Shown: positions 2,527-14,046 of the stretch, in pieces
Position numbering within the stretch: position 1 is the first letter of the stretch
Layout: every line of letters starts with the position of its first letter
Origin: Promethearchaeota archaeon
GTDB taxonomy: Archaea > Asgardarchaeota > Heimdallarchaeia > Hodarchaeales > Hodarchaeaceae
Assembly: GCA_048938105.1 (NCBI GenBank)
Contig: JBHLMN010000005.1
Coordinates: 32,001 to 96,000, forward strand
DNA length: 64,000 nt
Direction of reading: 5' to 3'
Program-made: the position numbers and the translations under genes
The notes under the pieces: generated by a model
What the model was told of the DNA's origin: nothing
Seen by the model: only the letters and a program-made list of their open reading frames with translations
Database searches by the model: none

Positions 2527-3738
2527 ATGGTGTTCATCATCGTGAACAATGAACAAAATAAAACACAGACACAAGCAGAGGTAGCTAAAGAAGTATCTAC
2601 ACCTAAACCAACATTGGTAACAGAATTCAATCCTGATCGTCGTGAGCTAGCAATTGCGTATACTAGAACCTCTCGTCTTTACAGCATCCGATTGATGATC
2701 ATTTCTTTCGTAATATCTGTTGTTATTCTACTCTCACGAGTAACTGTGTTCTTTCGAGATTTGTTGGGAAATTTAGGTATAAAAGATCCTTTCATGCTTA
2801 CAGGTATTTTTTTTGTTGTTGGTTTTCTTTGTGTAAACATCGCAGAACTCCCTGTTTCTTTTTACCTACATTCTAGATTAGGACGGAAATATGGACTTTC
2901 AAAACTTACAAATCAGAAGTGGCTTTGGAGATATATCAAAGGGAATCTTGTTGGTTTTATAATCAGTTTCCCAATGTTTGAAGGGTTTTATTGGCTGTTG
3001 AGGACTTTTCCAAATTTTTGGTGGATGTGGGCAACAGCTATAATGATTTTATTTACGTTAATCTTCTCAAACTTAGGTCCTATAGTTCTCCTCCCAATTT
3101 TCTATAAATTTGATCCATTAGAGAATAGTCATCCCGATCTAGCCGACGAACTCGTAGAAATGGCAAAACAAATTGGCTTAAAAACCACGAAAGTTTTCAT
3201 ATGGCACATAAGCGAAATGGTAACCACATCAAACGCAGCTCTGTTAGGACTTGGTAATACCCGACGAATCATCATTGCAGACACAATGCTTAATGTTTTT
3301 ACCCCAAATGAAATTAAATGGATACTTGCTCACGAGATTGGTCACTTTAAGCATAAAGATTTCTGGAAAAGAATTATTATTGGAAGCTTCACCACATTTT
3401 TAATTTTCTTGTTCACAAATGTGACTTTTTATCCTCTTGCTAATTTTTTTGGTTATTCTTCAATCATTGGTGATGTTAGTGGTATTCCAATTATTGGTCT
3501 ATGTTTTTGGTTAATTTCCTTCGGAATAGATATTCCATCTCTCTGGTATTCAAGGAGACAAGAAGTAGCAACCGATGATTTTGCTTCCTCTATTATTAAA
3601 GATCCAACAGTAGCTAAAAGCCTATTCATTAAGATGGCTGACCAAAACCTCTCAGATATTAATCCCCCATGGTGGGAAAAATTGTTTTTTATGTCTCATC
3701 CATCAATTAATGAACGAATCAAACGCTTAGAAAGTTAA
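2527..3738 (+). CDS. M48 family membrane zinc metalloprotease (Ste24-like)
   Basis: multiple TM helices, NAALLG, LAHEIGH (HExxH), EVATD, SHPSINERI. Confidence 0.93.
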   Translation: MVFIIVNNEQNKTQTQAEVAKEVSTPKPTLVTEFNPDRRELAIAYTRTSRLYSIRLMIISFVISVVILLSRVTVFFRDLLGNLGIKDPFMLTGIFFVVGFLCVNIAELPVSFYLHSRLGRKYGLSKLTNQKWLWRYIKGNLVGFIISFPMFEGFYWLLRTFPNFWWMWATAIMILFTLIFSNLGPIVLLPIFYKFDPLENSHPDLADELVEMAKQIGLKTTKVFIWHISEMVTTSNAALLGLGNTRRIIIADTMLNVFTPNEIKWILAHEIGHFKHKDFWKRIIIGSFTTFLIFLFTNVTFYPLANFFGYSSIIGDVSGIPIIGLCFWLISFGIDIPSLWYSRRQEVATDDFASSIIKDPTVAKSLFIKMADQNLSDINPPWWEKLFFMSHPSINERIKRLES

Positions 3739-3762: not shown

Positions 3763-4521
3763 TTAACTTAACAGGTTCATTAAATGGACAATGTCTGCAT
3801 CTTCTATGTTTATAAATATGGTTCTAATGAGAAACACTGTAATAATGAATGTCAAAGGTGCTAGGAATCCAGCAAATAACACAATAGTTGGCCAAAGTTC
3901 ACCACCAAGAAAAATAATAATCCAATAAAAACCAAGGTCTCCTATAGCACCCATAAATAGAATTATTGCGGTACCAGCTAGAGTTTTTATAAAACCTCTA
4001 TCCTCAGGAGTGAGTTTATCTTCTTGTAAGAGATGAAAAGACCTAAATACAATTTTTATGACGAGGATCAATATTAGGATTAAGGGAGTAAGGAAAGTTA
4101 TTAAGAGGAGTATCGAAAACCATGGATCTGATTCACTCATCCCTAATATAGCAAAAGAAGTTCCAGTGGTAAAACCAAATAGGAATGGAATATATTTTTC
4201 CCAGAGTGTCCGTCTATTCGTAAATGCCGTCACATAAAATAGACTCAATTCAAGGGATAATATCGAGTATGCTATACCAATTACTCTCTTAATTAAAAAT
4301 AAAGTAATATCCGAATCCTGAGTAAACCCTACCATTAACATAACAATGAGAAAATATAAGACCATTCCAGAACTCAACATTCCAACGTGGAATATTGATT
4401 CTTCACGAAATTTTCTCCAAATTCTGAAAAATTTAAAAGCTGCATAAAGAAATAAGCCCGCTAATGAAAGCATGCTAATCATAGCACTAAAGCTAAGTAT
4501 GATTTCAATGACATCAATCAT
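3763..4521 (-). CDS. stand-alone seven-transmembrane protein
   Basis: seven hydrophobic segments, basic loop RIWRKFR after TM1, no soluble output domain; overlaps the upstream RHH gene by 4 bp. Confidence 0.75.
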   Translation of the reverse strand: MIDVIEIILSFSAMISMLSLAGLFLYAAFKFFRIWRKFREESIFHVGMLSSGMVLYFLIVMLMVGFTQDSDITLFLIKRVIGIAYSILSLELSLFYVTAFTNRRTLWEKYIPFLFGFTTGTSFAILGMSESDPWFSILLLITFLTPLILILILVIKIVFRSFHLLQEDKLTPEDRGFIKTLAGTAIILFMGAIGDLGFYWIIIFLGGELWPTIVLFAGFLAPLTFIITVFLIRTIFINIEDADIVHLMNLLS

Positions 4522-4727
4522 TCGCGATCACCTATTATTTCTTTAGAAACATTCTCTGCATATTCCTGTACCCATTCATGCAGCTTGTCTTGTAGCACAT
4601 AAGCGCAGAGTACGGATGGGCGTAGTTTGGTAACCTCAGATAGTCTTTCGATTTCGTGTAAAACCTTTAGCGGAAGTCGCACAGTTATTGTCGATGTTCG
4701 CATGTAGAGCATCCTCTGGAATAACAT
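4518..4727 (-). CDS. ribbon-helix-helix (CopG/Arc/MetJ-like) DNA-binding protein (start may be 4703)
   Basis: beta strand TITVRLP followed by two amphipathic helices (VLHEIERLS; PSVLCAYVLQ). Confidence 0.7.
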   Translation of the reverse strand: MLFQRMLYMRTSTITVRLPLKVLHEIERLSEVTKLRPSVLCAYVLQDKLHEWVQEYAENVSKEIIGDRE

Positions 4728-4737
4728 AAAAGGAGTT

Positions 4738-4752
4738 GTGCACAGTGTACAC
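4738..4752. promoter_or_regulatory. pseudo-palindromic putative operator GTGCACAGTGTACAC
   Basis: immediately upstream of the RHH gene next to an AT-rich TATA-like element; 14/15 identical to the reverse complement of 12465-12479. Confidence 0.6.
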
Positions 4753-4870
4753 GAGAATATTTAATAATGATTGTCGTGAAGGAGTACAAACCTCCCACAA
4801 GTTCATTTGATTCCTGATCTAGTCAAATTATAAAAAAAAAGGAATTATTCCCTAAAAAAAACAGAGATAA

Positions 4871-5290
4871 GTGATAAATATGTCAACTGAAAGAGTAAAA
4901 TATGAAATCAGTCCGATTGGGCCTCGACTCATTGCCCTTATTATCGACCTAATTATTGTGGCGATGTTGACGGTGTTTTGCCAATGGGGCGTCGAGCTGG
5001 AATGGAATATGTTTTGGAAACCAATACTATTCCCGGATATCGAATTTGTTGAAATATATTGGCTAATGCTGTTATTAATGTTGATATTCAGTATCCTCGT
5101 TTATTTCATATTGGTTCCTAGCTTTACAAATGGCCAAACAATTGGAAAAATGATAATGGGTCTCTATGTAGTCTATAATGACAATTCAAGTACCAAAAGG
5201 AAATTTGTGACACATATTAAGCGATTGTTCTTCATGCGAGGAGGAACAAAAGTCGTCAAGGTTTCTGGTGAACGGCCAGAGGGTCTTTAA
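4871..5290 (+). CDS. RDD family membrane protein
   Basis: GPRLIALIID and GQTIGKMIMGL motifs. Confidence 0.85.
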   Translation: MINMSTERVKYEISPIGPRLIALIIDLIIVAMLTVFCQWGVELEWNMFWKPILFPDIEFVEIYWLMLLLMLIFSILVYFILVPSFTNGQTIGKMIMGLYVVYNDNSSTKRKFVTHIKRLFFMRGGTKVVKVSGERPEGL

Positions 5291-5340
5291 GACTCGATGA
5301 ATACGGGAGAGGTGTTTTTACCCTTTTTTTTAATGATGAT

Positions 5341-6087
5341 TTACCAATATAGTTCCTTCGCAGGCATGAATGTTTGGGTATAATCTTCGACTATCTGACC
5401 ATCCGATAGACGGATTACACGATCCCCTAAAGGGCAAATTGCTTCATTATGGGTAACAATAATCACAGTCCGATTCAGTTTTTTTCCTGTCATTGCTTCC
5501 ATAATTTCTAATACTTGTCTACCGATCTTAAAATCTAAATTACCTGTTGGTTCATCCGCTAATAAGATTTCAGGTTCTTTTGACAGTGCTCTGGCAATTG
5601 CAACACGCTGTTGTTCTCCTCCACTTAATTGAGCGGGAAAATGATGGATCCGATCATGAAGACCGACTTTATCAAGATAGTCAATGGCTGTTTGACGAAT
5701 CATTTTGGAATCGAAACTTATTCCACCATTAGTCTTTCTCTTCACTCCTACTAATTCTAAAGCATATTCAACGTTTTCTAAGGCAGTTAACCGTGAAATA
5801 AGGTTGAAGAATTGAAATACAACCCCAACTTTCTTTCGGCGATAAATCGTTAACCATTTATCGGATAAAGTTGAAACACCAATTTCTCCAACAGTCACAT
5901 TACCAGATGTGGGGACATCTAACCCTCCAATCATGTTTAAGAGAGTTGTCTTGCCAGCTCCAGACGGTCCAAAAATAATGACGAGTTCCCCAAGTTCTAT
6001 ATTGACATCAATTCCCCTTAAGGCTGGAATTGTAGTTTCCCCTAGAGTATAATTCTTTTGAATGTTCTCTAATGTGATAAATGCCAT
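5341..6087 (-). CDS. ABC transporter ATP-binding protein (LolD/MacB type)
   Basis: Walker A GPSGAGKT, LSGGEQQR signature, LLADEPTGNLD, VTHN. Confidence 0.95.
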   Translation of the reverse strand: MAFITLENIQKNYTLGETTIPALRGIDVNIELGELVIIFGPSGAGKTTLLNMIGGLDVPTSGNVTVGEIGVSTLSDKWLTIYRRKKVGVVFQFFNLISRLTALENVEYALELVGVKRKTNGGISFDSKMIRQTAIDYLDKVGLHDRIHHFPAQLSGGEQQRVAIARALSKEPEILLADEPTGNLDFKIGRQVLEIMEAMTGKKLNRTVIIVTHNEAICPLGDRVIRLSDGQIVEDYTQTFMPAKELYW

Positions 6088-6100
6088 TTACTTATACCTC

Positions 6101-8638
6101 TTAGACCACTCGCTCCTTTGTTGCTTCTGCGAGATTCAGATTCAAAGCTCTTCTTAAGGGGAAGAATTGGGCCACTAAAACACCTATAAAAGTAAGTCCA
6201 AATGATATTAGAATTGTTTCATTACTCATAAATAGTTTTACACGGAAGAATTCTAGATCCAAAATGATTCTCATGAAGAACCATAACATGAGCCAGCCCA
6301 GGATTAACCCTAAAATTGTTCCAATGATGGTGATAATAAAATTCTCAACAGTAACATTTCGAACAAGGCGTCTGCTTGGTGTCCCAATAGTTAATAGAGT
6401 TGCAATCTCTCGTTCTTGTTCTTGTAAATTGATGTAAATGGTGTTATATACAATTGAACATGAAAGAACAACCGCAAATACTGCAACAATGTAGATGATG
6501 AAGTAAATCAAATTAAGAAGATTTAAGAAATCACTACTCTGCTCTTCCTTAGTATAGATATTTCTAATGTTGTAACTAAATTTTTGATAGATTTCCTTGC
6601 GTATTGAATCCAAATGATCTAGAGTGGGATTATCCACTTTCACTAGAATCGCATTTGCAGGTTGGCCTGGGAATTTACTTACACTGACCAACTTATTCAG
6701 TTCCATATAGGCAACTAGCCCATTAAACTCATCGACAAGTCCTGTAATACGGAACGAAAAATTGACCATATTAAAATGGGCTCTTAATGGAGCTGTACTT
6801 GTGATATTTGTCAAAACAGGTAATTCTAGGTTTACAGTATCATTTTCCCATACTTTTAATTTTTGAGCTACGGGAACACTTAGTACAATACCTGTTGGAT
6901 CCCACCCACCAGCTACATATTCAAATTTATGACCTTTATACCCATTTGAATTATTCACCCCAATTAATTGTACTTGTTTACTCTTATCAGATTTGCTAGA
7001 TGTTACTGTTGCTCCTGAAATGAGATGGTACGTCACATTTACTACACCATCAATTGAGTCATTAATTCCCATAGCAATTTGGGAGGCATTAACTGGAATT
7101 TCTGAATAATCAACGCGTAAATCCCAATCTTCTGCGACATCATACTGATAAACTAGAGAATAAGTCATTGATTCCATCATTCCAAAAACCATACTAATTA
7201 ACGATACCGACACAACAACTGCGAATACAGAGGAGAAGGTACGTCGCTTGCTACGAAAGAAGTTCCTAAGAGGGATTTTGTATCCAGTGACTCTCAGGTG
7301 TATTCGGAGCTTATTCAATATTCTTTCAAATAGTGGTACACGTCCAGTCGTAATATGGAGAGATGGATCAAAACGAAGACTTTCTGCTGGAAGAGGTTGA
7401 ATAGATCCCTTAATGGGCAGATATCCTCCAATAAATCCTGTAAGAAGACCTAACAAAACTCCTACTATAATGATAGGCCATTCGATAGTTACTTTTGGAG
7501 TAAATGGTATTGTTAACATATGAGTATAAAGCGGGCCAAACCATTGCAGAAATAACAATCCTAGGATTGTTCCTAAAATGGTTCCGATGATAGCTACCAC
7601 CATAGCAATACCTAGATATTGTAGGATAATCGTTCTTCTCGAGTAACCAAGGGCTTGAGCTACTCCAATATCTTTTCTTTCTGCAACAACCATCCTCCCT
7701 AAAAGCACGTATAATCCTCCCATTGCCATCGCTAGAATGATTGCTGGCAATACAAATCCAAATTCGCGCGCCTCGTCAATATCTAATTTCAATACATAAT
7801 ATGCTGCTTGTTTATCTCTATCAATGGGATCACTTAACTTTAAATCATGTGTTTCTTCTAGAAATTTCTTTAGATCATCTGCTATTGCTTCTCGTTGTCG
7901 AGGAAAGAGGTCAGGTTTTAACAACACAGAGATTTCATTCACTTTTCCTGGAACACCTAATAACCGTTGTGCTGTCCTTAGAGGTAAGTATATGACGCCA
8001 AAACGTCGTGGACTTGGCATAATGTCTGCATAGGATCCCATATTTATCAAATACTCTGGTGTTCCAAGTGATCCTAGAACTTCAAACGGAGTGTTATCAT
8101 CTCCAACAGCAATATACTCGTGTTGCTTTAACTTCCAATATGTCGCCAAGTGAGTTTCAACAATGCAAACGTTTCTGTATTGACTTATTTCTGAAAATGG
8201 CTCTCCATCTAGAATTTTAAAGCCATTTACTTTAGGTTGAGGTCGATAATCTCCATTTTCGTCAACAGTACTATATGCAACAATTCGACCATTTTGACGA
8301 GTACCTCGGATCTCAAATATTGTATCATCAATAATTCTTAATTCGTAACTGACTACTTTAGATTCCTCCAAGTCCATAAACTCATCCATGTATTTTGTTA
8401 GATTGTTAGTATCAATCCAAGCATCCTCACCCGACCCTCCTGGATTTGCTGTTAGTATTGTGAAACTTGCCATATTATAATCCGTGAATGCTTGGTTATA
8501 TGTCCGATTCATGAGTATAAAAGCAGTGACCATTCCATTGAATGAAGTGATTCCTATGGCAATTACTAATGCAATAGTAAAGAAACGAATTTTATGTGCT
8601 TTTAAAGCACGATAGATATTTTTTGCCGTTTTAGCCAA
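6101..8638 (-). CDS. ABC transporter permease with two FtsX/MacB-type repeats
   Basis: two ectodomain + TM repeats; ERKDIGVAQALG and EREIATLLTIG motifs; TTG start. Confidence 0.92.
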   Translation of the reverse strand: MAKTAKNIYRALKAHKIRFFTIALVIAIGITSFNGMVTAFILMNRTYNQAFTDYNMASFTILTANPGGSGEDAWIDTNNLTKYMDEFMDLEESKVVSYELRIIDDTIFEIRGTRQNGRIVAYSTVDENGDYRPQPKVNGFKILDGEPFSEISQYRNVCIVETHLATYWKLKQHEYIAVGDDNTPFEVLGSLGTPEYLINMGSYADIMPSPRRFGVIYLPLRTAQRLLGVPGKVNEISVLLKPDLFPRQREAIADDLKKFLEETHDLKLSDPIDRDKQAAYYVLKLDIDEAREFGFVLPAIILAMAMGGLYVLLGRMVVAERKDIGVAQALGYSRRTIILQYLGIAMVVAIIGTILGTILGLLFLQWFGPLYTHMLTIPFTPKVTIEWPIIIVGVLLGLLTGFIGGYLPIKGSIQPLPAESLRFDPSLHITTGRVPLFERILNKLRIHLRVTGYKIPLRNFFRSKRRTFSSVFAVVVSVSLISMVFGMMESMTYSLVYQYDVAEDWDLRVDYSEIPVNASQIAMGINDSIDGVVNVTYHLISGATVTSSKSDKSKQVQLIGVNNSNGYKGHKFEYVAGGWDPTGIVLSVPVAQKLKVWENDTVNLELPVLTNITSTAPLRAHFNMVNFSFRITGLVDEFNGLVAYMELNKLVSVSKFPGQPANAILVKVDNPTLDHLDSIRKEIYQKFSYNIRNIYTKEEQSSDFLNLLNLIYFIIYIVAVFAVVLSCSIVYNTIYINLQEQEREIATLLTIGTPSRRLVRNVTVENFIITIIGTILGLILGWLMLWFFMRIILDLEFFRVKLFMSNETILISFGLTFIGVLVAQFFPLRRALNLNLAEATKERVV

Positions 8639-8665
8639 ATATTATTACTCCTTTCATTATTTACA

Positions 8666-10372
8666 TTACCAAGAGATATTTTCTGCAGGAGTGGGAGTCT
8701 GGGTTTCTATAGAATCTATTTCACCAGAGCGTAATCTAATGACTTTATTCCCAATTAATGAGATTTTCTGATTATGAGTGACGAGTATAACTAAGATATT
8801 TGGTCTCTCTTTAATAATTCCTTGAATAACAGCTAATACTTTTTTTCCTTCTTTAACTGAAAGTTCTCCTGTTGGTTCATCACATAGGAGTATATCTGGT
8901 TCCTTAGCAAAGGCACGAGCAGCAGCAACTTGTTGCTGTTCACCTCCAGAGAGTTGAGACGGAAACGAGAAACGTTTCTCCCATAATCCAACTTTCTTGA
9001 TATATTCCTCTGTCTTAGCTAGTACTTCACTCCTGGATATCTTCCTTCTAGAGAGATCTACTGCATATTCAATGTTTTCCATGGCGTTTAAGACTGGTAT
9101 CAGATTAAAGAATTGAAAGATGAATCCACACTTTTCACGACGGTATTTGGTAAGCTTACCTTTACTCAATTTTGTAACTTCAATATCACCTACCTTAATT
9201 GTCCCCTCACACTTATCAATCCCTCCAATGACGTTTAAAAGAGTTGTTTTACCTGAACCAGATGGACCTAGGACTACGACGAGTTGACCACTTGCTAAAT
9301 CTAATGACAGATTCTTTAATGCATATATTTGTTGATTTCCCATCTTGTAAATCCTGTTAACATTTCTTAATCTGACAAATCCATTAACATGATCTATATC
9401 TCGATATTGAGTAGTCACTTGGGAAGATGAGTAATCACTGGTAACCTCTTTTTGCTCAGCTATTTCCTTCATCTTTTTTAAAAGAGGCGAAGACAATGTT
9501 GTTATGAGATCTTGACCTGGATTCATTACTGTGGAAAGGAGAATCTCATTTCGTACATAAACATCATATACTTTATCTAAAGAAGCAATTGATTGCATGA
9601 TTTCTAGAGCTTCATCATTATCAATGAATGATTTCATTTTAAAGGCGTTTGAATTGGATCCAATGAGTCTGGCGAAAGTTTGGAAGGGCTTTTCATCTTG
9701 AATAGCTGTGAAAAACTGTCGCATGGATGATTTGTGACCAATTTCACAGAATTTATTTAGGGGTTTTTTTAGATGATTTGGTAAAGGGAAAAAAGATAAG
9801 ACTCCAAGATTGTCAACTTTTTCAATGATTTTCTCAAGGGATAAATAATCATCTTTTACAACAAAGAACATCCTTGAAGTTATTTTCTCAAGGCTAACTT
9901 GAAAATCATGAGCAAAACTAGCTAAGAGAACGAGAGCAGATTGAATTCCTTCAGCAGCTTTAGGGAGTAGGAACAATGATTGAGAAGGGAAATTAATGAC
10001 TCTGCAAAAGCAATCTAGCTGTGGAAATTCGGCATCATGTATTTTACCCTCTAAGTATTCTTCCATTAATTTCAATACAATTTTCATGATAGGAAGAGCT
10101 CGTTTTGCACTCACATCGATAGGTACAAGTACAATGGCCATAAGTGAAGGAAATTCAGGGTTCTGAGATGCTAGAAATACCATTTTATGATTATCAAATT
10201 TAATGAAGCTAATATGTTCACCTTTCAAAATCTTTTGGGAAAAAAGTGTCAATACATTAGCAAGGGTACCAGATATCTCTGGGCGTTTTGTTAGCTTTCC
10301 CACTCCAGAGCTGAAAATAACTTCATCACGATTGACAATTAAAAGATCAGGAGGAGGATATCTATAGCTCAT
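8666..10372 (-). CDS. longin/DENN-like domain fused to a LolD/MacB-type ABC ATPase
   Basis: C-terminal about 240 aa has [31 protein letters not shown]; N-terminal about 120 aa follows a longin secondary-structure pattern (longin call less certain than the ATPase). Confidence 0.8.
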
Positions 10373-10392
10373 TTCAATACAATCCAGGATAT

Positions 10393-12387
10393 CTAAGAGA
10401 ATTTTCTTTTTTTTCTATTAATTACAAAGCATAATGAAATCAAAGACAATAAAGCAGGTATAATTTCAAATGATGGAATCTCACCGCCACCAGGAATAAT
10501 TGATTTTATATTGGTCATTCGACCTGTATTTATCAGAGCAAAGTATGGGACATAACTTTCATAGGTCGCTTCCCAACTATTAGATACTTCATTGTAAACG
10601 GTAGTAATATTCAACCACTGACTAGACTGATTATCCCAACGCTTCCATTGATACACAGGAAATTCACTTGCGTTGGAAGAGAGCATTAACGTAAGAGTAA
10701 TGAAAATGATTTCATCAGATTTTTCACAATTGAACTCTATTGCATATACCGCATTTTCAGGTAATGAATCTTTTGATATAACAGAAAGATTAAAGAATTG
10801 ATCAATCGATGAAGTTAATGTTAAAATGAACCAAAGGTCATTTGACGCATTTTTGAACCTAATTGTCCGTGGAGAATTAGCTTTTATCTCCCAATTCCAA
10901 TCAAATGCACTAATATAAATTGAAAACGAAATTCTTGTAGAAGCAATATTCTGAGCTTCATCAGTTGCATAAATAAGTAATATATAACTTCCATTCTCAA
11001 GATTTGAATATCTTATTGTATGGTTTTGCAAAGTCTCGATGAAAATACTTTTGATGTTCATATTCAGTAATCTATACGTCAGATTTATGTCCTCAGAAGA
11101 AGTTATTATTATCTCAACATCTCCTTTAATAACTGAGTTGTTTACAAAATCATAGGTTATCTCAGGAGGACTATTATCAACAATCCATATATAGCGAGCA
11201 TTTACCCATAATCCTGAAATTGGACTCTTTACAGAGACATTTAGGATGTGGGATATTTCCAATTCTGGATTCGGAACTGGAATGTACGTATTTTCATCAA
11301 CTGATTCAAAATTTCCTCCATCCCATTGATAAACTATTGTTCCATTTCCTGAAGAGATGAATAGCTGAATCTCTGTTGTCCCTTTAATTTTTGAATTGTT
11401 TCGTGGAGTAAGCAATGAAATCCCTGGCAATGTATTATCAGTAATATATACTAAATGATAGTAGTCGTGAAATCCAACATTATCAAATGCTATAATGAAT
11501 ATTTCATGGGAACCATCTTCCCCAGGTAAGATTACGTTGAAAAAATTCGAAGAAGTCGTTAAATTATTGTCATCATCCCAATGATAGTAAATTACATCAG
11601 TACCATAGGGAGAGGTGAATTCCAGAGAGATTATTGTATTTGAAGCTAATCTTGAATTATTAATGTGAGAAGCTTGCATGATATAGGGGCCTTTGTAATC
11701 TGGGGGTGGTTGGGCAATTTCTGCTTTTGTCAAATTGAACCATATAATATTGGGTCCTAAATCTTCTTTCAAACAGAGGAGTAACCCACTGTCAGCAGCA
11801 TACCAGAATGTTAATATTCCTGCAGCTATTTTCCATGCTTTAAATTCCTGATCGACCTGGGCCATTTTTATTGTGTCAGCAAGAACAGTTACAGTATAAG
11901 TATCAACTGTGAATTGATACTTATCAAAAAAGCCAGTTGTATCAATCCAAAAATCTAGTGAATGACTCGGGTTACCGAATATAATCTCCCAGTAATTGGT
12001 TGCTTCATATCCATGGTTAGTACTTGTTCGATTCACAATAGAATCAAACGATGGTTTATCTAAAGTAGGGATTGAGTAATCAAAATGGATAAACCAATGG
12101 GTTCTATTCAACGATAAAACTGTTGCATTAAAAGAGTCCTGAAATGCTGTTGTTCCTTGTTCATATTCGATATAACTACTTATTGTAAGATTTGTGTTTG
12201 GGAGAATAGTTTTATTAAGATCAAATGTCTGTAGATGTTTAAGAGAAGGATTTTGTAAAGGATAATCATCATTTATATTTGTTGTTGGCATTTGGAGGGT
12301 AGATTCAGATATAATGTTGCTGTTTGGTAAATTCAACATAAAAAATAGCAATATAGGAACGAAATAAGTCTGGTAATGCTTTCTCAT
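10393..12387 (-). CDS. secreted multi-Ig-like cell-surface protein with C-terminal sorting signal
   Basis: N-terminal signal peptide; repeated beta-rich units (DNTLPGI, DNSPPEI); IPSFE + TM + RKKRK tail. Confidence 0.8.
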   Translation of the reverse strand: MRKHYQTYFVPILLFFMLNLPNSNIISESTLQMPTTNINDDYPLQNPSLKHLQTFDLNKTILPNTNLTISSYIEYEQGTTAFQDSFNATVLSLNRTHWFIHFDYSIPTLDKPSFDSIVNRTSTNHGYEATNYWEIIFGNPSHSLDFWIDTTGFFDKYQFTVDTYTVTVLADTIKMAQVDQEFKAWKIAAGILTFWYAADSGLLLCLKEDLGPNIIWFNLTKAEIAQPPPDYKGPYIMQASHINNSRLASNTIISLEFTSPYGTDVIYYHWDDDNNLTTSSNFFNVILPGEDGSHEIFIIAFDNVGFHDYYHLVYITDNTLPGISLLTPRNNSKIKGTTEIQLFISSGNGTIVYQWDGGNFESVDENTYIPVPNPELEISHILNVSVKSPISGLWVNARYIWIVDNSPPEITYDFVNNSVIKGDVEIIITSSEDINLTYRLLNMNIKSIFIETLQNHTIRYSNLENGSYILLIYATDEAQNIASTRISFSIYISAFDWNWEIKANSPRTIRFKNASNDLWFILTLTSSIDQFFNLSVISKDSLPENAVYAIEFNCEKSDEIIFITLTLMLSSNASEFPVYQWKRWDNQSSQWLNITTVYNEVSNSWEATYESYVPYFALINTGRMTNIKSIIPGGGEIPSFEIIPALLSLISLCFVINRKKRKFS

Positions 12388-12464
12388 ACTTATTGAATCA
12401 CCAAAAAAATATTACTGGATTTTAACTCTAAATCAAAACAAAATGCAAGTGAATTAAAAAGTTA

Positions 12465-12479
12465 GTATACACTGTGCAC
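12465..12479. promoter_or_regulatory. second copy of the putative operator (GTATACACTGTGCAC)
   Basis: in the divergent intergenic region upstream of the surface-protein/ABC operon; matches 4738-4752 at 14/15 in reverse complement. Confidence 0.6.
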
Positions 12480-12623
12480 GAAAGCGAATTTCGTAAAAGA
12501 AATTAAAGTTTAAAAGGATTGTACTAAATACCTACTATTAGATCCAAATCTTTCCATGTTTTGAGATTCGTATAGGTTAAAATAAATAATCTTTTATTTA
12601 CAGAAATTCACAGAGGATGAATC

Positions 12624-13274
12624 ATGGCAAGAAGAACCAGAAAGATTCCCAAACAGGATCTTAGTGAGAAACCAGTCTCTAAGGAGGAAGAGCTCGACAA
12701 AGTTCTTACAAGATTAAATTCTATTCATTCAAAACATCATGAAACGTCCCCTAGGGGAGGACCATCCTTTCTTAATAAGAAAGTGATCATGACAAGTTCG
12801 TTTATTATAATTATATCATTAGGAGTTCTTACATTAGGCACTCAATTTATGGAAACTGAGACTATTAGTTCTATCGACTCTCTTGACTTTACAATTCAGC
12901 TCCTAGATAAAAGTGAGGTTCTGTTATCAGATTATAAAGGGGAACCGATTATTCTTGACTTCATGGCTAGATATTGTTCTGCCTGTAAAACCCAAATTGA
13001 TGAGTTCAAACTATTTCAACCAAAATACCCTGAAGTTCGTATCATATCAGTTTCTGTTTCTTCTGACGACAGTATTACTCTGCTAAAGAATTATAAAAAT
13101 AATTATGGCATTTCTTGGACATTAGGGCGAGATATCACCAAACAGGGTGCAAAACTCTTCTCTGTTCAATATATACCCAAAATAGCACTTTTTGATTCAA
13201 AAGGGACGCTCAAACATGAGAATACAGGAGTTGTTAACTACGATACCCTAGTAGAATGGGTCAATGAATTATAA
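12624..13274 (+). CDS. membrane-anchored TlpA/ResA-like thiol-disulfide oxidoreductase
   Basis: single TM helix, LDFMARYCSAC (CxxC), YIP cis-Pro loop. Confidence 0.9.
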   Translation: MARRTRKIPKQDLSEKPVSKEEELDKVLTRLNSIHSKHHETSPRGGPSFLNKKVIMTSSFIIIISLGVLTLGTQFMETETISSIDSLDFTIQLLDKSEVLLSDYKGEPIILDFMARYCSACKTQIDEFKLFQPKYPEVRIISVSVSSDDSITLLKNYKNNYGISWTLGRDITKQGAKLFSVQYIPKIALFDSKGTLKHENTGVVNYDTLVEWVNEL

Positions 13275-13290
13275 CCAAGGTAGATAAATA

Positions 13291-14046
13291 ATGATGATAT
13301 TTGGAATTGAAGTAAACGAGTCGATAGGCCTTCCGCTTTTTTTCCTGATCGGTTTGTATATAGCCCTCTCGCCTTGTCTCTTTCCTATCATGCCTATGAC
13401 AGTCTTTCGTATAATGAGTAGAACAATTACTGACGACTTGGGTGAGGTTCAAACCCCAACTCGTAGAATGGCTCTTCAATGGGTTATTTTATTAACTAGT
13501 GGTATAATGATAACTTTTTTTCTTGCTATTTTGGTCTCTGTTTATGTCTGGCATAACTTAGGTTTCTTTCTTATTGAAAATTTTAATGAAATTACTTTTC
13601 TCTTAGGTCTTCTTTTAATAATTATGGGATTATTTCTTTTATTTCCAGTGTTGTCAAAGTTGACTTTTGCCCGAATTCCCATCCCTCAGAGGGTGACTGA
13701 CTCTTTTCAACGAGAAGAATATCGGCAGTTAGACTTGTTTTTAATTGGTTTTGGTTATTCGATCATCGCATTACCATGTTCATTTCCAGTTTTTCTAATA
13801 TTATTATCCATTATTCCCTATATTGGAAATATTTTCTTTCTATTTGTTGGAATGATCCTTTTCTCAATTGGGTTGCTCATTCCTTATCTTATTCTAGTTT
13901 TGGTTGCTGCAGAAGCAAGAACTCGAGCTGCTTCTTTACTTGCAGAGAAGTTTCGAATTGTTGAGATTATAACAGGGATTCTTGTGATTATATTTGGTAT
14001 ACTTTTCATATGGCCAAGTTTCGGTGGTCCATATGTTTTTCTTTAA
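13291..14046 (+). CDS. ccdA: CcdA/DsbD-family disulfide reductase membrane protein
   Basis: SPCLFP and LPCSFP Cys motifs in a 6-TM protein, adjacent to the TlpA-like gene. Confidence 0.88.
   Translation: MMIFGIEVNESIGLPLFFLIGLYIALSPCLFPIMPMTVFRIMSRTITDDLGEVQTPTRRMALQWVILLTSGIMITFFLAILVSVYVWHNLGFFLIENFNEITFLLGLLLIIMGLFLLFPVLSKLTFARIPIPQRVTDSFQREEYRQLDLFLIGFGYSIIALPCSFPVFLILLSIIPYIGNIFFLFVGMILFSIGLLIPYLILVLVAAEARTRAASLLAEKFRIVEIITGILVIIFGILFIWPSFGGPYVFL

Follow-up and report, generated by a model that had tools for sequence, protein, structure and literature searches.

The locus analyzed here lies in a 64,000-nucleotide stretch of a Promethearchaeota archaeon genome (hereafter the window; contig C39, positions 32001-96000, of the 5.85-Mb, 35% GC assembly G000), in which a 15-bp element occurs twice, each time in front of an operon. 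The first copy, O1 (4738..4752; GTGCACAGTGTACAC, GTGCAC-AGT-GTACAC), lies upstream of a minus-strand gene for a small protein that is most likely a ribbon-helix-helix (RHH) regulator, which shares its operon with the gene for a seven-helix membrane protein (7TM). The second copy, O2 (12465..12479; GTATACACTGTGCAC, on the minus strand GTGCAC-AGT-GTATAC), precedes by 77 nt the ATG (12387) that opens a four-gene minus-strand operon for a surface protein and an ABC exporter. The element is built from two GTRYAC hexamers separated by 3 bp, so that the hexamers stand 9 bp apart and form a 7-1-7 pseudo-palindrome, and the two copies are 14/15 identical in reverse complement. These coordinates and the reverse-complement match had been given correctly by an initial annotation made from the sequence of the window. 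Its remark that both copies are followed by GA found no support, as GAGA follows one copy and TAAC the other when both are read in the common orientation from motif to TATA-like box.

Both copies of the element abut TATA-like sequences. At O1 these stand on both sides, with the box ATATTTAAT (4757..4765) 4 nt away on the side of an RDD-family gene and a second element, CCTTTTATG on the minus strand (4725..4733), 5 nt away on the RHH side. At O2 there is one on the surface-gene side only, TTTTTAATT on the minus strand (12452..12460), 4 nt downstream of the operator copy; closer to the gene follows the GGTGAT Shine-Dalgarno sequence (12397..12402, minus strand), which precedes the start codon of the surface-protein gene in most orthologous loci. 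Across the genome, the spacing of TATA-like words before Shine-Dalgarno-supported starts gave a flat histogram with no typical TATA-to-start distance. The position of O1 upstream of the RHH gene, as initially annotated, was upheld, but the start at 4727 listed for that gene, 10 nt from the motif and eight codons further upstream, lacks conservation; the start that relatives share is at 4703 (ATG; protein MRTSTITVRLP...), and the motif ends 34 nt before it. We also considered a structured RNA and rejected it, since Rfam gave one sub-threshold match, unrelated to the sites, and a 7-bp stem cannot form around a loop of 1 nt.

A scan of the whole 5.85-Mb genome returned O1 and O2 as the sole sites at no more than one mismatch, in agreement with the earlier impression by eye that there was no other copy. 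The pattern GTRYACASTGTRYAC matched twice, at O1 and O2, against 0.14 matches expected from base composition, and the scan gave no consensus site beyond these two that would point to a larger regulon in this genome. Looser matches to the motif were seen at C4:70556, C42:184078 and C18:141648. In a genus-wide scan of 21 genomes, with the reversed pattern as control, GTRYACRNYGTRYAC matched 34 times against 12 for the control, and at least 22 of the 34 matches lie at this locus.

We then compared the locus among relatives. Surface-protein and 7TM orthologues were searched for in 40 related genomes (20 congeners; 19 from other genera), and 15 related loci were fetched and annotated with tblastn for synteny. 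The surface protein has clear orthologues in 19 of the 20 congeners and 7TM is present in 17 of them; in the 19 genomes of other genera 7TM had no match, and the surface protein gave only weak, partial matches to repeat domains and no orthologue. The loci fall into two arrangements. Arrangement B, seen in nine species further removed, has the two operons as divergent neighbors: 7TM<-RHH<- | ->surface->RDD->ABC->FtsX->ABC->TlpA->CcdA. In arrangement A, found in seven species (that of the window together with G003, G007, G009, G011, G012 and G014), the order is 7TM<-RHH<- | ->RDD | ABC<-FtsX<-longABC<-surface<- | ->TlpA->CcdA, with the export operon inverted and starting 7.7 kb from RHH. G015 resembles arrangement B, with its RDD gene behind the second ATPase and a long N-terminal extension on the first. 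In the main locus of every relative the 7TM gene comes after RHH, and 7TM, RHH, RDD, both ATPases, the FtsX permease, the surface protein, TlpA and CcdA are kept in both arrangements wherever the contig spans them, which supports the grouping of these genes proposed by the initial annotation. With the same proviso, an M48 peptidase also belongs to the syntenic set.

The element follows this division. It stands beside the RHH gene in all 15 relatives examined (in G010 as an interrupted three-hexamer array); the B-type genomes and G015 have a single copy, in the intergenic region common to both operons, and each of the seven A-type genomes has one more, before the surface-protein gene. Its geometry is equally regular. 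Between the motif end and the RHH start lie 33-35 nt in 15/15 genomes, and between the motif end and the surface-gene start mostly 73-95 nt, for the single B-type copy and the second A-type copy alike. Outliers at the surface gene range from 53 to 171 nt (53, 59 and 131 among them); the 53-nt value reflects an earlier in-frame start, with the conserved MRKHY start at 77 nt, and G012 has a large insertion. The G010 site (L047:11745-11768) reads GTGTAC-AGT-GTGTTT-TTT-GTGCAC, with the outer hexamers 18 bp apart, and because of this interruption G010 lacks the strict 15-bp pattern in the genus scan.

An alignment of 22 modules from 16 genomes, anchored on the motif, gave a mean information of 1.72 bits per position for the motif, 0.83 for the TATA box and 0.35-0.39 for the flanks. 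The TATA-like box at the fixed distance of 4 nt is A/T-rich in 22/22 modules, and a TTWATA-like element at the RHH-side offset is kept in all clades and absent at O2. The A-type intergenic regions between the surface-protein and TlpA genes are otherwise unalignable, with a mean column identity of 39%; what is conserved in them is the motif, the TATA box, about 30 nt and a block adjoining the TlpA start. At the TATA-like box of this region, TAACTTTTTAATT hardly varies among six of the seven A-type species despite flanks that cannot be aligned, and the surface protein itself has diverged to 48-64% identity while both operator copies stay nearly intact. Because the copies are conserved beside unalignable flanks, we infer that both have been kept by selection, and the surface-operon promoter would appear to need a copy of its own once it is away from RHH. 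Phylogenetic footprinting, which had been proposed as a check, thus found the motif single where the operons are divergent neighbors and one per promoter once the inversion had split them.

We considered how such a pair of copies could arise without any regulatory role. By an estimate from base composition, it is not unusual for two places within 64 kb to match at 14/15, and the pair might then be a chance repeat in AT-rich intergenic DNA. Set against this, the site is unique in the genome, is conserved at both places with fixed geometry and shows a genus-wide excess over the control that is concentrated at the locus; coincidence is hardly credible on these grounds, and we rejected it together with neutral inheritance. 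The copies could otherwise be inverted repeats left by, or used for, the 7.7-kb inversion. They are indeed inverted relative to each other and bracket exactly the segment, from the RDD gene to the surface-protein gene, that is turned in arrangement A relative to the other species, and under the staggered-break model of inversion, inverted duplications can arise at the breakpoints. However, where the inversion is absent this promoter still has its one copy, and the element is therefore not a paired recombination site; the orientation is identical in the seven A-type species, and Pfam gave no recombinase match in the cluster. In addition, both copies remain nearly intact beside unalignable DNA and a surface protein at 48-64% identity, which excludes a neutral relic. 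We therefore regard an origin of this kind without regulatory function as very improbable, although it is plausible that the second copy itself arose by a duplication linked to the inversion. A site-specific invertible segment as a present function was likewise rejected, given the lack of a recombinase domain in the cluster, the single orientation in seven A-type genomes and the single site elsewhere. A one-step inversion from a G015-like order fails to reproduce the RDD orientation, so at least two events are needed. Collectively, footprinting, synteny and the genome-wide scan support the earlier proposal that the RHH-7TM and surface-protein/ABC operons share an operator, and we conclude with high confidence, from comparative sequence analysis, that the 15-bp element is a conserved cis-regulatory operator of two transcription units that abuts their TATA-like boxes.

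The gene next to O1 (4518..4703, minus strand, with the revised start) encodes 61 amino acids, and this assignment draws on the conserved start and N-terminus, an AlphaFold2 (AF2) model and Foldseek. Four B-type species have TTG at the conserved start. Across orthologues the N-terminus reads M(R/K)TSTIT(V/I)RLP, with T3, T7, R9, L10 and P11 invariant. Pfam gave nothing above threshold; RHH_1 appeared in 3 of 16 orthologues, with a best E of 0.0089 and under the gathering score, and a PDB profile search returned nothing relevant. In the AF2 monomer (predicted local distance difference test score, pLDDT, 86), residues 1-11 are extended and residues 12-25 and 29-60 form helices, which corresponds to the shape of the RHH superfamily, an N-terminal strand followed by two helices in about 45-60 amino acids; the strand is unformed in the monomer, as would be expected if it pairs only in the dimer. 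Nearly all of the Foldseek matches listed are RHH proteins (CopA_SO, CopG, ORF56, Arc, PutA, omega and AmrZ), at weak E-values of 0.16-2 and with template modeling scores of 0.54-0.67 on target length. On this predicted structure, the protein is most likely an RHH protein.

The stop codon of the RHH gene overlaps the start of the 7TM gene (3763..4521, minus strand) as ATGA. The AF2 model of 7TM (pLDDT 91) has seven long helices and a short C-terminal helix, which has the conserved motif DxxHxMNxxS. The protein has no Pfam family, and ESM Atlas gave no named family; its homologues were found only in Asgard (Hodarchaeales) records. Structural alignment with VIA-align gave a best Z of 13.3, to Ost-alpha, followed by adhesion G-protein-coupled receptors (GPCRs) and designed GPCR-like folds at Z 12-13, all within the range of unrelated helical bundles, and with Foldseek E-values of 0.04 or worse the GPCR-like resemblance is at helical-bundle background level. 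An apparent RHH-7TM fusion in G007, a long open frame, was discarded, as its two matches sit in different frames.

The exporter operon begins with the gene for the 664-amino-acid surface protein (10393..12387, minus strand), which has a weak Pfam match to Y_Y_Y and hydrophobic segments at both termini, the C-terminal one with a basic tail. The C-terminus (10393-10500; PGGGEIPSFEII, a hydrophobic helix and the basic tail RKKRKFS) looks like a membrane anchor or a sorting signal. The next gene encodes the first ABC ATPase (8666..10372, minus strand), in which residues 352-501 match ABC_tran in Pfam and are preceded by an N-terminal extension of about 330 amino acids. This extension, which the initial annotation had called longin, is found only in the A-type clade and G015; the nine B-type species have an orthologue of about 240 amino acids, a plain ATPase, with the RDD gene directly upstream. 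The MacB/FtsX-type permease follows (6101..8638, minus strand; 845 amino acids, with two FtsX and two MacB_PCD stretches in Pfam), and a second ABC ATPase (5341..6087, minus strand; ABC_tran E 3.5e-33) is the last gene of the operon; both are syntenic. Between the two operons lies the gene for the RDD-family membrane protein (4880..5290, plus strand; Pfam RDD E 3.5e-14), a cluster member in both arrangements, at three different positions. Its open reading frame as listed begins with GTG at 4871, and the ATG at 4880 is preceded by the Shine-Dalgarno-like sequence GTGAT. On the far side of O2, a TlpA-like thioredoxin and a CcdA/DsbD-type membrane protein (12624..14046, plus strand; Pfam) are cluster members by synteny and run in the same direction as the operon tail in the ancestral-type arrangement. 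The A-type block before the TlpA start (12540-12623) contains TATA-like AAAATAAATAA, a GATTCGTAT-like element and a Shine-Dalgarno sequence; it looks like a promoter of TlpA's own, possibly a separate regulatory site. With this conserved proximal block in the window's clade, TlpA and CcdA are at most candidate targets of the operator. On the other side of the RHH-7TM operon, a gene for an M48 (Ste24/HtpX-like) membrane peptidase (2527..3738, plus strand; Pfam) adjoins the 7TM gene wherever the contig reaches.

RHH-7TM pairs recur in the same genome. Three further pairs were found in G000 (C63:134597-135534, C27:204963-205985 and C41:187172-188151; loci L066-L068). In the C63 module, RHH precedes 7TM and the pair diverges from an ABC ATPase and an 817-amino-acid FtsX permease; its site consists of TATA-N4-GTGTAC followed by GCGTAC-ATT-GTACAC, ending 19 nt before the RHH start. 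The C27 module has the swapped order, 7TM then RHH, and diverges from an ABC ATPase and an 827-amino-acid FtsX permease; beside its TATA-like box stands the inverted repeat TGTAAG-N14-CTTACA. The C41 module, again RHH then 7TM, adjoins a UbiA prenyltransferase gene and has GTGTAC-AAC-GTTTAC about 24 nt before the start. GTRYAC-type hexamers at 9-bp spacing, 19-24 nt before RHH, are thus present in two of the three modules (C63 and C41), and two of the three (C63 and C27) face MacB/FtsX ABC operons with a double-FtsX permease. The C63-type locus is conserved in G003, G011 and G018, with TATA-N4-GTGTAC; the site of G011 and G018, GTGTAC-AAA-GAGTGC-AAT-GTACAC, has three hexamers at a 9-bp period, and the interrupted main-locus site of G010 has the same three-hexamer form. 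A dedicated putative site in front of most RHH paralogues is a signature of autoregulators.

Two further observations concern these modules. The sequences GTGTACATTGTACAC (L058:1525, G015) and GTGTACAACGTACAC (L065:1540, G009) lie 77-120 nt upstream of genes for orthologous 125-amino-acid multi-pass membrane proteins that are 77% identical, and this gene is a possible extra target of one RHH paralogue; tblastn found no orthologue of the protein in G000. Enzymes resembling those of prenyl-protein processing also recur beside the modules: the Ste24-like M48 peptidase of the window (2527-3738) adjoins the 7TM gene, an ICMT-family methyltransferase lies in the C63 locus and the UbiA prenyltransferase adjoins the C41 module (L068:7820-8500; L067:5277-6236). 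In G012, the operator 15-mer of that genome has a third exact copy on contig C116 (L062:1514), and behind it stands an ICMT-like gene, a possible further target, next to a PadR-like gene.

On the basis of these comparisons, we propose, with a probability of roughly 70%, that the RHH protein represses its own operon and the export operon through the shared operator, with 7TM as the sensor. In the older arrangement, the single operator of the divergent promoter region would serve both the RHH-7TM operon and the surface/RDD/ABC/FtsX/ABC(/TlpA/CcdA) operon; in the window's clade, the export operon has been inverted away and the operator-plus-TATA module is present in two inverted copies, one per promoter. 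The 61-amino-acid protein most likely binds the hexamers as two dimers, a role suggested by its adjacency, the fixed spacing and the sites before its paralogues. From its place beside the TATA box or boxes, it would keep the pre-initiation complex from assembling and so repress both operons. Since its start overlaps the RHH stop, 7TM may provide the signal input, for example by holding RHH at the membrane or releasing it, and together the parts would switch a MacB-type exporter and its surface protein locally, in response to what is sensed at the envelope. Repression is the rule for archaeal regulators that bind downstream of the TFB recognition element (BRE) and TATA box (PMC4158304). When bound at the TATA box or downstream of it, such regulators block the pre-initiation complex, and the archaeal RHH protein aCcr1 does so through palindromic boxes.

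Several points weigh against this proposal. The family scores of the presumed binder are weak (RHH_1 E 0.009 in 3/16; Foldseek E ≥0.16), the C27 repeat is not of the GTRYAC type, the G010 site is interrupted, and we infer the role of 7TM purely from operon structure. The binder could also be a factor other than RHH. If the operator belonged to another transcription factor encoded elsewhere, the RHH gene would be just one of its targets, and the tie between RHH and the site does come from sequence, in a protein whose family assignment by sequence is weak. On the other hand, the site is essentially private to the locus in G000 and always abuts RHH at a fixed distance, and two paralogous RHH genes have their own related hexamer site at the same position, as is typical of autoregulators. 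We consider a foreign binder improbable and retain RHH as the likely ligand of the operator.

The sign of regulation is a further point, in that the operator of the surface operon lies upstream of the sole conserved TATA box there and archaeal regulators at such a position often activate, so that the sign may differ between the two promoters. RHH would then be a dual regulator, repressing its own operon, where the operator lies between TATA box and start, and activating the surface/ABC operon, where it occupies the BRE position. The only conserved TATA-like box at O2 is indeed downstream of the operator toward the surface gene, and position-dependent activation and repression are documented for the archaeal regulators TrmBL1/Tgr, Ptr2 and TFB-RF1. 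By contrast, aCcr1 is a repressor, as are most characterized small RHH regulators, and with a gap of only 4 nt to the TATA box the protein would lie on the BRE itself, more often blocking TFB. Dual regulation is unlikely on balance, although less so than a foreign binder, and repression of both operons by RHH is the reading that we favor.

Asgard archaea are the closest prokaryotic relatives of eukaryotes, and to our knowledge almost no regulator-operator pairs are known from them. The candidate pair described here is a small system that can be tested directly (a 61-amino-acid protein, a 15-bp site and two promoters), and its history provides a natural control experiment, with one site while the operons are neighbors and two after the inversion split them. 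The recurrent pairing of a seven-helix membrane protein with an RHH regulator beside MacB-type exporters is undescribed; full-text literature searches yielded no description of this pairing or of the 15-bp operator. We tentatively suggest, as an idea that is more doubtful than the repression model, that RHH and 7TM might form a kinase-free two-protein transmembrane signaling module specific to Hodarchaeales, in which a receptor-like seven-helix protein controls an RHH repressor directly. Each genome would have four such paralogues, of which three would be connected to a MacB-type ABC exporter of their own and three would have their own palindromic repeat beside the promoter. If true, the pairing would represent a new archaeal way to couple envelope sensing to transcription.

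Parts of this design resemble known systems. CopG, Arc and MetJ are autoregulated small repressors that bind as dimers of dimers to short subsites 8-11 bp apart, in palindromic, pseudo-palindromic or tandem order, each dimer placing a two-stranded sheet in the major groove. Two of them, CopG and Arc, rank among the best structural matches of the RHH protein, and its TITVRLP N-terminus resembles a CopG-type strand; unlike these three, it acts, as proposed, in an archaeal TATA/BRE promoter context, has a longer C-terminal helix (residues 29-60) and a membrane partner, and its sequence and structure scores are weak. Among RHH transcription factors of archaea, the small proteins aCcr1 (Sulfolobales) and CdrS (Haloarchaea) come close as known systems. 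However, these are cell-cycle regulators with several or many targets and without a membrane partner, and the present system is set apart from them by its single locus with two promoters, a translationally coupled seven-helix partner, and an ABC exporter and surface protein as proposed targets. The PutA RHH domain and the Mlc-PtsG pair provide precedents for repressors that are regulated by recruitment to the membrane or to a protein in it; the PutA domain is among the structural matches as well, although PutA is a large enzyme with an RHH domain, unlike the 61-amino-acid protein. Bce-type modules of Firmicutes combine the BceRS two-component system with the FtsX-family ABC transporter BceAB, which is encoded beside BceRS and controlled by it, in several paralogous cassettes per genome, and a candidate membrane sensor and a DNA-binding regulator beside a MacB/FtsX-family transporter, again in several paralogous cassettes, follow a comparable logic. 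The likeness is in logic only, as there is neither a kinase nor a response regulator (no cluster protein matched HisKA, HATPase or Response_reg in Pfam), the sensor candidate is a seven-helix protein without an output domain, and the regulator is an RHH protein. In its own logic, the system may be read as an autoregulated RHH repressor of the CopG/Arc/aCcr1 kind, with the idea of RHH-7TM signaling as its more novel part.

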